Source: a virus. Taken from it: 64,000 nt of DNA. Below are positions 2,741-10,988 of the stretch, piece by piece. The notes below the pieces were generated by a model. It made no database searches. It saw only the letters and a program-made list of their open reading frames with translations, and had not been told where the DNA came from. Location: positions 5,904 through 69,903 of the IMG/VR virus record IMGVR_UViG_3300021963_004549; one strand, written 5' to 3'. Made by a program: the position numbers and the translations under genes. Each line of letters opens with the position of its first letter. Within the stretch, counting starts at the first letter, position 1.

Positions 2741-3757
2741 ATGAAGGATCTCAGATTTATCTGTGCTCAACCAGATGATACCTATTACACATGGCAGGTA
2801 CATTTATGGATAGAGAGCTTAAGAAAAATTGGACATTCAGACAAAGCAATTGTGCTTATATTCATTCCTAGTTATAGGGAAAAGAATACCAAATGGCAGC
2901 AAGTGATAGACCTCTATCCAGAAGCTGAATTTGTATTCTACAAAGATGAGCACAAGATTAGTAACATGTTAGGAGTTTATATTCCTGTGTTGCGTCCTTA
3001 TTGTCTGAAAAGATATTTTGAAGATAATCCAGGGATGAAAGATAAAGCTGTTATGTATTGTGATTCAGACGTAGTGTTTACAAAGAATTTCAATGTAGAT
3101 GCTTATCTGGATGATGATATAAACTATGTATCTGATACAAACAGTTATATCAACGCTTCATATTTTGATAGTAAGATTAAAGATGTAAAGCCTGAAAAGA
3201 TTGAGCTGTACAAAACTAGAGACATTCTAGCTGAAACAGCAGAACTTACAGGCATAACTAGAGAGATAGCTGAGGCTAATAATCAGCATTCAGGAGGAGC
3301 ACAATACCTATTAAAGAATATTGACAGTGAGTTTTGGGCAAAGGTATTGGAAGACTGTTTGGTAATTAGAACACATTTACTAAACGTGAACAGAGAATTC
3401 TTCGAGAATGAAAATAAAGGCTTTCAAAGTTGGTGTGCTGATATGTGGGCTGTTCTCTGGGCTATTTGGTATAGGAATCAAGAAGCGAAGATTATTCCTG
3501 AAATGGATTTTGCTTGGTCTTCTGATCCAATTCAGAAACTAGAGAGAACAGGACTCTTACATAATGCAGGAATTGTTGGTGATGAAGCCAATGGGTATCC
3601 TGCTTTCTATAAAGGAAAGTATCACACAGGACAAGATCCTTTAGATGATCCTCATTTACAAGAAGTTATAAATAATGAGAACAGTCAGAAGTATTGCACT
3701 CACTATTATGCATCTAAACTGATAGAATTAAAAGAAAAATACAAATTATTATATTAA
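2741..3757 (+). CDS. putative GT-A fold glycosyltransferase (DxD motif)
   Basis: VMYCDSDVVF DxD-like motif in a nucleotide-sugar-transferase-like context; embedded among fiber-like genes. Confidence 0.3.
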   Translation: MKDLRFICAQPDDTYYTWQVHLWIESLRKIGHSDKAIVLIFIPSYREKNTKWQQVIDLYPEAEFVFYKDEHKISNMLGVYIPVLRPYCLKRYFEDNPGMKDKAVMYCDSDVVFTKNFNVDAYLDDDINYVSDTNSYINASYFDSKIKDVKPEKIELYKTRDILAETAELTGITREIAEANNQHSGGAQYLLKNIDSEFWAKVLEDCLVIRTHLLNVNREFFENENKGFQSWCADMWAVLWAIWYRNQEAKIIPEMDFAWSSDPIQKLERTGLLHNAGIVGDEANGYPAFYKGKYHTGQDPLDDPHLQEVINNENSQKYCTHYYASKLIELKEKYKLLY

Positions 3758-3772
3758 CAAAAAACGATTATT

Positions 3773-4357
3773 ATGAGTAATAAGAGAGACTTAAAAGCCT
3801 TTGTTCGCTTCGATGGAAGTGGAAGAATCGTTGCTGGTAGCTTAATTCTTAGGAAGAAAAAACCAAAGGTGGGTAAATGGTATGAAATTCAAGCATACGA
3901 ATGTTGTAATTACATTCCTACAACTACCACTACAACAACTGCAACTCCTACAACCACCACCACCACAACAGATTCTTTTCAAACAATAACTTTAAATTAT
4001 AATGGTACATTGTGTGGAGTGGAGACAGATTGGTCACAAAAAACACCAGCTCAGGTAAAATGTGATTGGATTGAAATATTTGCTAGCGGTAGTCCTAGTT
4101 ATGGCGGAGGTTCATTCTTATATTATGCTTCTGCAGGATTTAATGTAGGAACACAATTATATAATACAACTCCTGGAAATCCTCCTATTACATTCAGTGG
4201 TACTTATATATATTATTTAACTGGTTCTTATTTAACTGCAAAGGTGTTTACATTAACAACTGGTGTCATTTCTGCAATATATGAACTTGCTGATTTACCT
4301 GTGTGTGAACCATATATTTGTCCTACAACTACAACAACAACTACTCCTGCACCTTAA
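3773..4357 (+). CDS. virion-associated protein, CCN N-module family, with poly-Thr linker and poly-Thr C-terminal tail
   Basis: N-term LKAFVRFDGSGRIVAGSLIL..KVGKWYEIQAYECCN is paralogous to 4371..4769; TTTTTTATPTTTTTTT and C-terminal TTTTTTTPAP. Confidence 0.45.
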   Translation: MSNKRDLKAFVRFDGSGRIVAGSLILRKKKPKVGKWYEIQAYECCNYIPTTTTTTTATPTTTTTTTDSFQTITLNYNGTLCGVETDWSQKTPAQVKCDWIEIFASGSPSYGGGSFLYYASAGFNVGTQLYNTTPGNPPITFSGTYIYYLTGSYLTAKVFTLTTGVISAIYELADLPVCEPYICPTTTTTTTPAP

Positions 4358-4370
4358 AACTAAATAAAAA

Positions 4371-4769
4371 ATGGCAAATCAAAATAAATTAAAAGCCTGG
4401 GTTAGATATGATGGCACAGGTAGAGTGATAGCTGGTGGTCCAATTCTACAAAGGTTCAAACCTGCTGTTGGTAACTGGGTAGAAATCAATGCAAACGAGT
4501 GTTGCAATGTACCTCCCCTTCCTTCAAACTGTATTGAGTTTGTTGCAGACACAACAGATGGTACATTCTTTATCTTTAGTTTTAACACTACAGGACCTAT
4601 CAACTTCACTGTTGATTGGGGTGATGGTACAACACATCCTGATTCAGGGGCTGGTGGATTTTATGAAGAGTCACACACATATGCTCAAGAAGGTCAACAG
4701 TACACAGTACGTGTTTGTTTTGACGACATCACATCTGTAACAGAATTAAGTTTCCCTGGTAACGACTAA
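4371..4769 (+). CDS. virion-associated protein, CCN N-module family paralog
   Basis: N-term LKAWVRYDGTGRVIAGGPIL..AVGNWVEINANECCN matches the preceding gene. Confidence 0.45.
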   Translation: MANQNKLKAWVRYDGTGRVIAGGPILQRFKPAVGNWVEINANECCNVPPLPSNCIEFVADTTDGTFFIFSFNTTGPINFTVDWGDGTTHPDSGAGGFYEESHTYAQEGQQYTVRVCFDDITSVTELSFPGND

Positions 4770-4780
4770 ATTATTAAAAA

Positions 4781-9278: not shown

Positions 9279-9418
9279 TGAAATCAGGTAAACCACGTTT
9301 GGCTCCTAAGGTTAGAAACCCTAAGCCTAACAAGCCTTATATGAGGGAATCAGATAATACTAGAAATAAAGGTAAGAGCCCTATGGCTCCTATGACTGGT
9401 AAGAAATTATCAAAATAA
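9278..9418 (+). CDS. small basic Lys/Pro-rich protein (46 aa), last member of the array
   Basis: MKSGKPRLAPKVRNPKPNKPYMRESDNTRNKGKSPMAPMTGKKLSK; TAATG overlap with upstream stop. Confidence 0.35.
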   Translation: MKSGKPRLAPKVRNPKPNKPYMRESDNTRNKGKSPMAPMTGKKLSK

Positions 9419-9467
9419 TCTTCCCTATAGTCTCAGTATTATAGGTCTGCTACCAATGGTAGCTAAA

Positions 9468-9502
9468 AGAAAAGCCCCCCAGAAATGGAGGGCTTTTTTT
9501 AT
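9468..9502. terminator. bidirectional rho-independent terminator between convergent gene blocks
   Basis: aaagcccccc-agaaatggag-gggcttttttt hairpin with T-run on + strand and A-run upstream giving a U-tract on - strand. Confidence 0.6.
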
Positions 9503-9522
9503 GAGCAAAAACGAAAGAAAGT

Positions 9523-10197
9523 TTATGGTAGTTGAGAATAATAATCCTCTTTAAAATGTGGATGTAACTCTATTACACCCTTTCTATCATCTAACACTTT
9601 ATCTGCCTGAGCTAATATCACTTCATTAGGTTGTATACCCATTCCAGATATATGTAATGTTCCCATACCCCAACGGTATAACATTGTTGTAGGGATGTTC
9701 TCGTATATTCTAGCATGGTGTCCAAATGTGATATCAGCATCCTCATCTCCTGATTTGTGGGGCCATGTGATTCTATCTAAGTAACTCTTAGTATAGATGT
9801 TTCCATTATTTATGTTGGAACTTATTCTCTCAAACTTATTGTTTACAAAGAAATAGTGATGTTGACTTCTGTAGATTTCATACCCACTGTTCAACACTAT
9901 TCCCATTGTAGCATCGCTGATTGCATTAGGTCCTAATAGATCATCATCGTCTAGTCTATAGATGTAATCGTTCTTACACTGTTTGTATCCCCATTTAAGC
10001 TTTGCAGCTATGGAAGGAAACCTTTCCTTAAGATTAAATATACGTATAGCAGGATGATTGTACGTATAATCCACTTCAGGATTATCATTTACAATAACCA
10101 TCTCAGCATCAGGTATAGGATTTTGTCTAATGAAAGACTCCATAGCTTCTTCAAGCAAGTGGTGTCTTTTATATGTGATTGTTAGTACGCTTATCAT
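9523..10197 (-). CDS. glycosyltransferase family 2
   Basis: MISVLTITYKRHHLLEEAMESFIRQN..AEMVIVNDNPEV N-terminal GT2 signature and later RLDDDD; start placed at MISVL (ATGA overlap with upstream gene). Confidence 0.6.
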   Translation of the reverse strand: MISVLTITYKRHHLLEEAMESFIRQNPIPDAEMVIVNDNPEVDYTYNHPAIRIFNLKERFPSIAAKLKWGYKQCKNDYIYRLDDDDLLGPNAISDATMGIVLNSGYEIYRSQHHYFFVNNKFERISSNINNGNIYTKSYLDRITWPHKSGDEDADITFGHHARIYENIPTTMLYRWGMGTLHISGMGIQPNEVILAQADKVLDDRKGVIELHPHFKEDYYSQLP

Positions 10198-10988
10198 TTT
10201 GGTAGTATTAGTCCTTTTTGAAAATAGGTAGGTAGAATTATCCAATCCTTACAGTACATCGAATCCCATTGATGGGGATACTCTGGACCAAACCATGTTT
10301 CAGGTGCTACGACAATCTTTTTAGCATTTCTACAAAGATAGGCAGCCCACCAACTAAACGAGCTGTTAGATATCACAAAGTTTTGACACATTGATAAGAT
10401 CCACAACTGTTCCTCTGGTTTATATCCTTCTAAGAAGAACATGTTAGGGAGATGTATGTTTTCTTTACACCACTCAATATCATCACTAGCTATTAGAAAC
10501 ATCTCTGTATCAGGTATTTTCTCAATAGCTTTGTATATATATTCTGGTGTGACCACTGGGTGGTAATTGGGAGAGTGTAAATAGTCACCTCTACGTACAT
10601 TAATCACTGTAACAATCTTCTTATGTAGATGAGGTAGTTCATTAATAATCCTTTCTACAAACTCTTGAGGAGGACCAAACAAACGTTTAATGTCTTCACC
10701 ATACTTCTCAAAATAACTTTCGCTTTGGTAGTATCCAAAATAGAACGTAGGTTTATCGTCTGAAGGAACTGCTAAGTTATAGTTTCTATTGTCCTGATAA
10801 GAGTCTACAAACTTTAACTCACGAAATATACTTTTTGAATAGTCATTCCCATGATAGATTACATGAGGTTTGTAAATAACAACCTGCTTATTATAGTCAA
10901 GCCCTTTTGCAAGAGCATGAGCTATCATAAACAAGTTGTTACCCAACCTGCCTCCTAATAGAGGCATTATATAATCTTTAGTTACCAC
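10194..10988 (-). CDS. glycosyltransferase family 11-like (alpha-1,2-fucosyltransferase-type)
   Basis: N-terminal GGRLGNNLFMIAHALAKGL resembles GT11 GGLGNQMFQYAF motif; real start probably MPLLGG at 10967. Confidence 0.5.
   Translation of the reverse strand: MVTKDYIMPLLGGRLGNNLFMIAHALAKGLDYNKQVVIYKPHVIYHGNDYSKSIFRELKFVDSYQDNRNYNLAVPSDDKPTFYFGYYQSESYFEKYGEDIKRLFGPPQEFVERIINELPHLHKKIVTVINVRRGDYLHSPNYHPVVTPEYIYKAIEKIPDTEMFLIASDDIEWCKENIHLPNMFFLEGYKPEEQLWILSMCQNFVISNSSFSWWAAYLCRNAKKIVVAPETWFGPEYPHQWDSMYCKDWIILPTYFQKGLILPK

Follow-up and report, generated by a model that had tools for sequence, protein, structure and literature searches.

In the mycobacteriophages Che8, Corndog and Myrna, the C-termini of capsid and tail-tube proteins are reported to be glycosylated by phage-encoded glycosyltransferases (GTs) (Freeman et al. 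2023, Cell Host Microbe 31:1216, as cited in PMC12619734). Methyltransferases have also been implicated in this modification, as two articles describe (PMC12619734, PMC12894461). Glycosylation of mycobacteriophage virions is further reported to affect how the immune system recognizes the phage, and the literature that we searched held no precedent for phage virion glycosylation outside the mycobacteriophages. Several cellular and viral systems offer additional points of reference. Mucin-type O-glycosylation (GT27) and the capsid glycosylation by A64R of PBCV-1 are eukaryotic or secretory-pathway systems. The general O-glycosylation system of Bacteroidetes acts outside the cytoplasm on the motif D-(S/T)-(A/I/L/V/M/T). 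GlyE of the serine-rich-repeat pathway acts on a glycan that a GT-B enzyme has begun, and extends it.

We analysed a window of about 64 kb from the roughly 115-kb genome of a crAss-like phage (~56% of the genome). Megablast of window positions 1-12000 gave no match among GenBank phages, and the lineage was therefore assigned by tblastn with the terminase together with Pfam. A first-pass annotation of this DNA had pointed to three GT genes accompanying virion-type proteins with poly-Thr tracts. That observation is confirmed, two of the enzymes being recognized by Pfam (GT2 and GT11) and the third, referred to here as ORF2741, by its predicted fold (Table 1).

Table 1. Positions of the glycosyltransferase genes, poly-Thr protein genes and neighboring features in the window
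Position	Strand	Feature	Basis
1953..2552	+	Fibre-like protein with a collagen-like GPQGPPG segment, without poly-Thr; context only	
2570..2713	+	47-aa protein; N-terminal anchor module MAIPS...LLWNISKQL followed directly by STTTTTTT-ATP; minimal candidate acceptor	
2741..3757	+	GT8-like GT-A glycosyltransferase (ORF2741), PHROG 4417 "unknown function"	Predicted fold and motifs
3773..4357	+	49-aa N-terminal module, P-T7-ATP-T7 linker, variable domain, C-terminal CP-T7-PAP tail; candidate acceptor	
4371..4769	+	Paralogue of ORF3773 with the same 49-aa N-terminal module and a weak PKD-like C-domain, without poly-Thr; context only	
9470..9497	-	Terminator-like hairpin, 12-bp stem then T-run, just 3' of GT2	Consensus scan only
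9523..10197	-	Soluble glycosyltransferase of family GT2; last cistron of the minus-strand operon	Pfam PF00535
10194..10988	-	GT11-family (alpha-1,2-fucosyltransferase family) enzyme	Pfam PF01531
56748..57887	+	379-aa highly conserved structural-module protein with terminus TSTTSTTTTVWPSTSTTTTLIP; candidate acceptor	
60046..60717	+	223-aa protein past the tail-fibre gene; T/S linker (60349-60432) and C-terminal CP-T8-IP tail (60685-60708)	
60729..61244	+	171-aa Cys-rich protein; internal 18-residue T/S tract (60951-61004) with Cys on both flanks	

A GT8-like enzyme and its candidate acceptors

ORF2741 had been listed as a DxD-bearing GT-A candidate and was the enzyme of which the first-pass annotation was least sure, yet it is the one to which the comparative support mainly attaches. 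Structure prediction gives a confident GT8-like version of the GT-A nucleotide-sugar-binding fold, in which D108-S-D110 follows the strand formed by residues 103-106. The H274-N-A-G motif and K291 are invariant among 37 close homologues, and the DxD, HxxG and K positions likewise do not vary among 42 divergent fused members of the family. Profile searches with the three GTs (Pfam, NCBIfam) placed GT2 in PF00535 and GT11 in PF01531 and assigned ORF2741 to no family. ORF2741 matches no Pfam family at E ≤ 0.1, and so does not belong to PF01501 (Glyco_transf_8); it likewise has no NCBIfam match, and no PDB chain was retrieved by profile search. Because these searches were empty, it is identified as a GT by structure prediction only, and we treat it as belonging to a family of its own, unannotated and GT8-like in fold. 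Homologues number in the thousands in metagenomes. In the full-text literature searched, neither the family nor poly-Thr tails of phage capsid or tail proteins are described. P0364 joins an ORF2741-family domain to a GT2 domain that is 35% identical to the GT2 of the window (E = 1.7e-34), and fusions elsewhere link the family to GT6, GT7, GT29, GT32 and methyltransferase domains. A GH19 endolysin-like gene lies ~1.1 kb upstream of ORF2741.

Ten poly-Thr tracts were found in the window, spread over five late-module proteins, for none of which was an obvious signal peptide seen by inspection. Two of these proteins, both candidate acceptors by their sequence, immediately flank ORF2741, one upstream and the other at its 3' side. 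Many of the related loci listed have equivalents of the upstream protein, 45-69 aa long, ahead of the GT. The anchor module of the upstream protein is also found in the fibre-like protein encoded by ORF 1953-2552. In many related loci, the first poly-Thr tract of the ORF just 3' of the GT lies near residue 50, directly past the N-terminal module typical of ORF3773, and ORF3773-like sequences are found in 77 of the 81 related loci. A third candidate, ORF56748, lies between a homologue of ring protein 3/4 and a PHROG "virion structural protein". Its tail is nearly invariant among 30 homologues, and the ~30 residues before the tail are variable. It has no match in PDB sequence or profile searches, nor by tblastn against cultured phages, so that its role in the virion rests on gene position. 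Its predicted structure reaches a pLDDT of 44.5, since the alignment is too shallow (83-98% identity), and was not used for fold search.

The tracts follow a regular pattern. Their length peaks at 7 Thr (143 tracts) and 8 Thr (66 tracts), Pro flanks them (preceding 169 tracts), neighboring tracts are spaced 3 residues apart, and their codons are mixed. The candidate acceptor is a sharply defined P-T7-x-x-P module, and the length peak, Pro flanks, 3-residue spacing, mixed codons and invariant ORF56748 tail argue for selection on it.

Coupling of the enzyme family to Thr tracts

Poly-Thr ORFs occur on the GT strand in 80 of 81 viral loci related to ORF2741, all 205 such ORFs being on that strand, and they mostly adjoin the GT directly in the related loci listed. 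The ORF2741-related loci contain 193 poly-Thr ORFs in 1.20 Mb, versus one in 1.37 Mb of control loci. In a reverse scan seeded on poly-Thr, an ORF2741-type GT was found nearby in 4 of 60 viral loci among the matches listed and was absent from the other 56, and poly-Thr was rejected as a diagnostic of the ORF2741 family; with such short flanks, this is a weak test.

The same association is found in cultured phages. A tblastn search with the ORF2741 family returned 77 matches, none of them in a Mycobacterium phage. All 13 sampled phages with distant homologues, whose hosts are Enterococcus, Lactococcus, Lactobacillus, Staphylococcus, Clostridium, Arcanobacterium and Chryseobacterium, carry Thr-rich tails on proteins next to the GT, most of them annotated as capsid, tail or portal proteins. 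The tails are on the major capsid and major tail proteins in phiFL1A, on capsid and tail in R3.3, on the capsid/protease and tail protein in Lactococcus 1706, on portal, head and tail tube in phiCTP1, and on GT-adjacent proteins in VPE25, Staphylococcus DH5, LpeD, MA9V-3, TPWB06, CHPC836 and iLp84. ENFP1 and LP65 were considered as counter-examples and rejected, their GT-adjacent proteins carrying degenerate Thr-rich repeats (TTVAP and TTTETQTQTQ). In contrast, Javan47, 315.6, phiJL-1 and Bassarid, which have homologous tail and capsid proteins without the GT, show no tracts (0/4), and phiJL-1 and Bassarid share a genus with the GT-positive R3.3 (P = 0.0004 to 0.006 for GT-positive versus GT-negative phages, Fisher's exact test). 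The coupling is seen repeatedly in structural modules unrelated to each other, in sipho-, myo- and podoviruses from three bacterial phyla, with the GT placed beside whichever protein bears the tail. That the neighbors of an ORF2741-family gene, both in this phage and in phages of unrelated bacteria, almost always include virion or structural-module proteins containing ~7-Thr runs suggests that many phages may coat their particles with mucin-like sugars.

The tailoring island and the weighing of alternative explanations

GT2 scores 44.3 bits against PF00535 (gathering score 23.3), with an acidic DxD-type motif in YRLDDDDLL, and GT11 scores 105.8 bits against PF01531 (gathering score 23.9) over profile positions 121-296, with GGRLGNN at its N-terminus. 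The GT11 stop overlaps the GT2 start in ATGA. The hairpin past GT2 is located at the convergent junction with the plus-strand late block. Both genes lie in a hypervariable island that holds only carbohydrate-tailoring enzymes and into which methyltransferases, an acyltransferase or other GTs are swapped in relatives. Among 38 relatives spanning the junction, GT2 is kept in 31 and GT11 in only 4. GT2, proposed here as a glycan-extending enzyme, plausibly acts in the same pathway as ORF2741, because the P0364 fusion joins the two families and because of its retention in those 31 relatives. GT11 is a rare accessory and is proposed as an optional capping enzyme. No genes for GDP-fucose synthesis were seen within the window, so the donor would have to be supplied by the host.

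These data bear unevenly on what had been proposed before. The idea that phage GTs act on the poly-Thr virion proteins now has strong independent comparative support, mainly for ORF2741; the enzyme genetically linked to poly-Thr is ORF2741, not GT11. The emphasis on fucosylated virion glycans was the weakest part of the earlier interpretation, given the rarity of GT11 among the relatives and the general lack of poly-Thr tracts in GT11-bearing phages. A GT11 enzyme in a phage had also been thought unusual, which is incorrect, as GT11 is common in other phages, mainly cyanophages.

The best explanation, to which we assign a probability of roughly 0.7, is that ORF2741 glycosylates Thr tags on virion proteins and that the GT2/GT11 island probably extends and caps the glycan. 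ORF2741 would be a cytoplasmic, metal-dependent GT-A enzyme co-transcribed with the late genes, and is proposed as the initiating Thr O-glycosyltransferase. It would recognize Pro-Thr7(8)-x-x-Pro on virion proteins, whether in a C-terminal tail or in a linker between domains, and attach sugars to the threonine hydroxyls, and the modified segments could form dense mucin-like glycopeptide brushes at the particle surface. In the order of action that we infer, GT2 and the translationally coupled GT11 would extend and then cap the Thr glycan, and since relatives swap island enzymes, related phages would display different glycans. Such glycans may serve the phage by stiffening linkers, shielding the particle from proteases and immunity, or promoting adhesion.

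GT morons of other phages act on host surface polysaccharide or LPS, and ORF2741 might alone modify poly-Thr while GT2 and GT11 serve another acceptor of this kind, in superinfection exclusion or receptor masking. The location of the two genes would fit such a division, on the strand opposite ORF2741, ~6 kb away and in a replication-module operon, as would the placing of GT11 by PHROG 2644 under "moron, auxiliary metabolic gene and host takeover", its occurrence in phages without poly-Thr, and the several Firmicutes phages that appear to do with a single GT. We nevertheless consider this division unlikely, though the most serious of the alternatives. In P0364, the GT2 domain joined to an ORF2741-family domain is a homologue of the window GT2; 36 of the 38 relatives keep one or more island GTs; GT2 and GT11 are short, soluble proteins in which no membrane segment could be seen by eye; and no integrase or lysogeny module was seen within the window.

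It is considerably less probable that the tracts carry no sugar and serve as flexible or extended linkers and tails, with the ORF2741 family traveling alongside for another reason, such as modification of a host envelope polymer at assembly or lysis, or membership of a mobile structural cassette. Linkers made of Thr and Pro are known to occur unmodified, a GH19 endolysin-like gene lies upstream of ORF2741, and the reverse scan mostly found poly-Thr with no such GT nearby among the matches listed. This explanation would have to accommodate the recurrence of the coupling across unrelated structural modules, three morphotypes and three phyla, the absence of tails from homologous proteins where the GT is absent, and the fusion partners of the family, all of which are glycan-building enzymes. 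We rejected as the main reading, and consider very improbable, a role in modifying phage DNA of the kind known from T-even phages, whose hydroxymethyl bases are glycosylated: GT2 and GT11 do end a DNA-metabolism operon with dUTPase, RNR-like and UDG-like proteins, and hypermodification of DNA has been reported for GTs from diverse viruses (Pyle et al. 2024, as cited in PMC12619734), but ORF2741 lies in the late structural block, the poly-Thr coupling would be left unexplained, and no hydroxymethylase, thymidylate-synthase-like or other base-hypermodification enzyme was found by Pfam and PHROGs in the 35-kb replication block of this window, which covers ~56% of the genome.

Scope of the proposal and comparison with known systems

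For the glycosylation of Thr tags by ORF2741, a wider form of the proposal seems to us somewhat better than an even bet. It holds that this GT8-like family writes O-glycans on a portable Pro-Thr7-x-x-Pro "glyco-tag" of capsid, tail, portal and fibre proteins in phages of at least three phyla (Bacteroidota, Firmicutes and Actinobacteria) and all three tailed morphotypes, producing a mucin-like glycocalyx that is diversified by the hypervariable island and bears a fucosylated cap in this phage. If the coupling is real, phage virion glycosylation would be much broader than the mycobacteriophages and would have a simple signature readable from genomes, one GT family plus a P-T7-xxP tag. It would extend to Enterococcus therapy phages (VPE25, phiFL), lactococcal and lactobacillal dairy phages and abundant aquatic crAss-like phages, give a function to PHROG 4417 and "prophage pi2 protein 34", and could explain poly-Thr tails that annotators have ignored. 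An enzyme and a 10-residue tag would also make a compact two-part system for cytoplasmic protein glycoengineering. The coupling is directly testable in phages already cultured.

Host general O-glycosylation, suggested earlier for the Bacteroidetes, shares with the tracts Ser/Thr targets and a Bacteroidota host background. It is a poor fit and was rejected. The proteins with tracts are assembled in the cytoplasm, tracts recur in phages of Firmicutes and Actinobacteria, and the tracts follow a Pro, Asp falling outside the eight residues commonest at that position. No D(S/T)(A/I/L/V/M/T) site lies within or beside any tract, the only two matches in the five window proteins being elsewhere. Retaining GT-A enzymes of GT8 (glycogenin, LgtC and GlyE of the pneumococcal PsrP pathway) are only 10-12% identical to ORF2741 in sequence. 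Whereas GlyE is an extender, the ORF2741 family appears conserved and is sometimes the sole GT, and its acceptor would be a defined T7 module instead of the long SASA-type repeats of the serine-rich-repeat pathway. The likeness to GT27 GalNAc-transferases and PBCV-1 A64R is distant and at the level of fold only, and ORF2741 has no lectin domain.

The parallel with mycobacteriophage GTs drawn in the first-pass annotation stands for function and not for descent. Che8 gp108-110 show no homology to the ORF2741-family HMM, GT2 or GT11 (HMM and BLAST, nothing at E ≤ 10 beyond noise). The Che8 capsid and tail proteins end in ...NKTGS and ...YSDGS, without poly-Thr, and the Che8 GTs lie in the non-structural right arm, unlike the ORF2741-family GT, which is found beside its candidate acceptors. 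As in the mycobacteriophages, so far as they are described in the source cited above, the Firmicutes phages of the ORF2741 family have candidate tails on the same two proteins, capsid and tail. By this analogy, the ORF2741 system appears to resemble mycobacteriophage virion glycosylation in function while not being homologous to it.

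Genome setting and poly-threonine tracts

The 64-kb window belongs to the genome of a crAss-like phage. In addition to the genes assigned by Pfam (Table), PHROGs contributed a tail-fibre protein and several virion structural proteins, and the terminase shares 27-40% identity with those of Cellulophaga phi4:1-type, crAss-like and Leptolyngbya phages. No near-identical genome was found in GenBank; metagenomic relatives are on 100-119 kb contigs. The position of the SPFH/Band-7 protein, between the portal and the acidic scaffold-like protein, is unusual for this membrane-associated family. 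Several of the five consecutive small, extremely lysine-rich proteins carry an N-terminal MA(T/K)(I/V)KKAQ and C-terminal Cys motifs (KCKYGC, RKWNC). They are conserved in relatives (locus L002), and one in the ENA contig L080 carries DUF6321. Possible roles are DNA binding inside the virion or ejection from it. Only 13 of the 81 related loci have the leucine-rich-repeat protein, which may therefore serve as a variable module for host binding.

Table. Features of the window
Feature	Position	Strand	Evidence or content
Late block 1	1-9278	+	
ORF2741 glycosyltransferase	2741-3757	+	GT8-like GT-A by predicted fold
Poly-Thr proteins (five)	2570-2713; 3773-4357; 56748-57887; 60046-60717; 60729-61244	+	
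Adjacent genes sharing N-terminal MAIPS...LLWxISKQL	1953-2552; 2570-2713		
Adjacent genes sharing 49-aa N-terminal xLKAxVRxDGxGRxxAG...ECCN	3773-4357; 4371-4769		
Leucine-rich-repeat protein	4781-5647	+	LRR_4; weak match to EndoS LRR domain; among fibre-like genes
Lysine-rich proteins (five)	6938-7474; 7477-7776; 7778-8218; 8220-8750; 8763-9278	+	
Replication block	9523 to about 44000	-	RecA, dUTPase, RNR-like, DnaB, primase, DNA polymerase
GT2	9523-10197	-	Pfam
GT11	10194-10988	-	Pfam
GroES/Cpn10-like ORF, 96 aa	10982-11272	-	By eye; LLGNRVLLELPP...KIVVDENTKE
545-aa protein of replication block	19915-21552	-	C-terminal part matches PHROG 'RIIB lysis inhibitor' families (E 9e-16)
Late block 2	44500-64000	+	
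P22-type portal	48772-51357		Pfam
SPFH/Band-7 domain protein	51360-51890	+	Pfam (E 6e-27); between portal and acidic scaffold-like protein
Crassvirus major capsid protein	53309-54862		Pfam
crAss tail ring 3/4 protein	55989-56720		Pfam
Antisense shadow ORF	60159-60431	-	Poly-Val
TTG-started ORF	60678-61244		N-terminus MSYNNYNNYNN

The poly-Thr tracts that the first-pass annotation had described in virion proteins are real: there are ten in the window, every one in the five plus-strand late proteins, and none in the replication block. Four of the five proteins end in a T-run followed by two or three residues, the last of which is Pro. The related loci yielded 150 distinct poly-Thr proteins. Their tract lengths show a sharp maximum at 7 (143 tracts) and 8 (66), Pro stands directly before the tract 169 times and at the third position after it 167 times, and successive tracts are exactly three residues apart in 94 cases. 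The unit is therefore a 10-residue P-T7-x-x repeat. Thr codons in the tracts are a mix of ACA, ACT and ACC in roughly the same proportions as in other late genes; the tracts therefore reflect selection on the protein, not slippage of the DNA. The C-terminus of ORF56748, TSTTSTTTT(V/I)WPSTSTTTTLIP, hardly changes among 30 homologues, while the preceding 30 residues vary freely.

Poly-Thr coding DNA also produces frame artefacts (the TTG-started and shadow ORFs in the Table), and in automated annotation ORF 60729 could be given a wrong start or the shadow ORF be called as a gene. Two short N-terminal module families, each common to a pair of adjacent genes, precede unrelated C-terminal parts (collagen-like, PKD-like, or a poly-Thr tail alone), and they look like interchangeable virion-attachment adaptors.

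Coupling of the ORF2741 family to the tracts

We compared 80 IMG/VR loci with an ORF2741 homologue (of 355 detected) and one ENA contig. Poly-Thr ORFs are present in 80 of these 81 loci, and all 205 are on the strand of the ORF2741-family glycosyltransferase, among the loci listed mostly directly beside it. In many loci a 45-69-aa ORF, the counterpart of the 47-aa ORF 2570, immediately precedes this gene, and many have at least one ORF just downstream with its first tract at about residue 50, like ORF 3773. By a stricter criterion, there are 193 poly-Thr ORFs in 1.20 Mb of these loci, whereas the 76 unrelated viral loci of the control set, picked for GT11 and without an ORF2741 homologue, hold a single borderline case in 1.37 Mb. 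ORF2741, and not GT11, therefore predicts poly-Thr. In the reverse direction, 80 IMG/VR loci were seeded on eight consecutive Thr codons, and 60 had the run in an open frame. The family was found within the flanks of only 4 of the 60, a weak test given the short flanks (median locus 7.5 kb), and in all four it directly adjoins the poly-Thr ORF. Thus, either poly-Thr tracts are more widespread than the ORF2741 family or the gene lies further off, and poly-Thr alone is not diagnostic of the family.

Because the 81 loci are mutually related, we also searched distant phage lineages. Homologues were found by tblastn in 77 deposited phage genomes (21-32% identity), almost all from phages of Firmicutes, plus one Chryseobacterium and one Arcanobacterium phage, and the neighbourhoods of 13 were inspected. 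In Enterococcus phiFL1A, gp51 is the homologue, and its gene is flanked by those for the major tail protein (C-terminus GTTTTTSTTTTTTSSTTTTTTTQASSK) and the tail chaperones; the C-terminus of the major head protein is ...TTTTTKPTTTTTKPTTTTTTTQG. In Lacticaseibacillus R3.3 it follows the capsid gene (C-terminus ...TTTTTTKAPTTTTTSSHA), and a tail protein ends in ...TTTTTTSHA. T9-10-HHD ends both the capsid/protease and the tail protein of Lactococcus 1706, where the homologue is the next gene. The same rule is seen in VPE25, Staphylococcus DH5, myovirus LpeD, Chryseobacterium MA9V-3, Arcanobacterium TPWB06, Lactococcus CHPC836, Lactobacillus iLp84 and Clostridium phiCTP1 (portal, head and tail tube). 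Pure T-runs are missing from the most distant two, ENFP1 and LP65 (Herelleviridae), where the genes directly upstream of the homologue finish in tandem repeats of the TTVAP type or of TTTETQTQTQ; LP65 orf51 carries the annotation of a structural protein detected by proteomics.

Four phages without the glycosyltransferase (Streptococcus Javan47 and 315.6, Lactobacillus phiJL-1 and Bassarid) encode homologues of the phiFL1A and R3.3 tail and capsid proteins. Their capsid and tail proteins stop earlier, and no poly-Thr ORF was found anywhere in their 23-30 kb. The genus Coetzeevirus holds both phiJL-1 and Bassarid and the positive R3.3. At the lineage level, Thr-rich tails occur in 13/13 positive and 0/4 negative phages (P = 0.0004, Fisher's exact test), or 11/13 and 0/4 by a strict criterion (P = 0.006), counts that include related lineages (DH5 and TPWB06 clearly so). 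In Enterococcus phage phiFL2A (NC_013643.1, 23415-24128; H154), the match spans query residues 4-269 only and falls under a 'major tail protein' annotation, in contrast to the sibling phiFL2B. The gene may be truncated or frameshifted, and in that case the two phages would be a natural mutant pair for virion glycosylation.

GT2, GT11 and the tailoring island

Among 1.84 billion representatives searched, 839 belong to the ORF2741 family; of the best 150, 42 are multidomain proteins. One representative, P0364, carries an ORF2741-family domain, then a GT2 domain with 35% identity to the window GT2 (E 1.7e-34), then a GT32 domain. This fusion ties GT2 to the putative ORF2741 pathway. In other members, proteins of 500-990 aa (P0296, P0313, P0317, P0321, P0363 and others), the family domain is joined to GT2, GT6, GT7, GT29 (sialyltransferase), GT32 or methyltransferase domains and, once, to a radical-SAM/SPASM domain.

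The GT11 stop and GT2 start overlap in ATGA, and a strong terminator-like hairpin lies 3' of GT2, so the two are the last cistrons of a minus-strand operon and probably translationally coupled. For GT11, only this overlap suggests a link to the ORF2741 pathway. Across 38 related loci spanning the convergent junction, which is hypervariable, GT2 is found in 31, almost always adjoining a conserved GroES-like gene, and GT11 in only 4. The GroES/Cpn10-like ORF is kept in 34 of the 38 and marks the inner boundary of the variable island. The remaining slots are taken by SAM/O-methyltransferases, a hexapeptide acyltransferase, a second GT2, a GT32-type DXD transferase and a Fringe-like GT31, the last in four loci without the main GT2; at least one island glycosyltransferase is kept in 36/38. 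Some clade members may make sulfated glycans, since L080 (ORF2741 91% identical) encodes a sulfotransferase and an APS kinase, together with a 1131-aa GT1-domain protein, at positions 1-4722, upstream of the lysis and fibre region.

The first-pass annotation had placed all three enzymes in one candidate virion O-glycosylation system. This gains support for ORF2741, through its strong coupling to poly-Thr, and probably for GT2, through the fusion, but least for GT11, which is rare among relatives and whose control loci hold almost no poly-Thr. Nor is GT11 unusual in phages, as had been supposed: it is common, occurring in at least 79 IMG/VR loci and in 103 records of GenBank, most of them from cyanomyoviruses. 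The alternative that the enzymes modify DNA was also checked, and no base-hypermodification genes were found in the window.

Proposed mechanism and known systems

The fold, the motifs, the genomic coupling and the fusion stand as results; the chemistry, the order of action, the sugars and the benefit in what follows are inferred. Late in infection, cytoplasmic GT8-like ORF2741 would glycosylate Thr in the P-T7-xxP modules of virion proteins; as in other enzymes of the GT8 fold, the reaction would require a metal and retain the configuration. An inverting GT2 would extend the glycan, to which GT11, in the window phage, would add a fucose cap; in relatives it would be methylated, acylated or extended differently. 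Tails and linkers would thereby gain a stiff mucin-like brush. We give this glycosylation mechanism, a reading from genomes, a probability of about 0.68. The first-pass interpretation is partly supported and now more precise, with ORF2741 as the key enzyme, GT2 as a probable partner and GT11 as an optional accessory.

The motif of the general O-glycosylation system of Bacteroidetes, which had been proposed as a parallel, is absent from the window tracts. Literature searches, and the papers on the positive Lactobacillus phages, yielded nothing on the ORF2741 family or poly-Thr tails. The nearest known system is virion glycosylation in mycobacteriophages (Freeman et al. 2023). As described in citing papers, it follows the same logic, without homology, and for the window phage glycosylation is a prediction from the genome. 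Che8 gp108-110 match none of the three window enzymes; the Che8 glycosyltransferases are far from the structural genes, and its capsid and tail proteins lack poly-Thr. Phage virion O-glycosylation is already known; the enzyme family, the defined acceptor tag and the cross-phylum reach are new.
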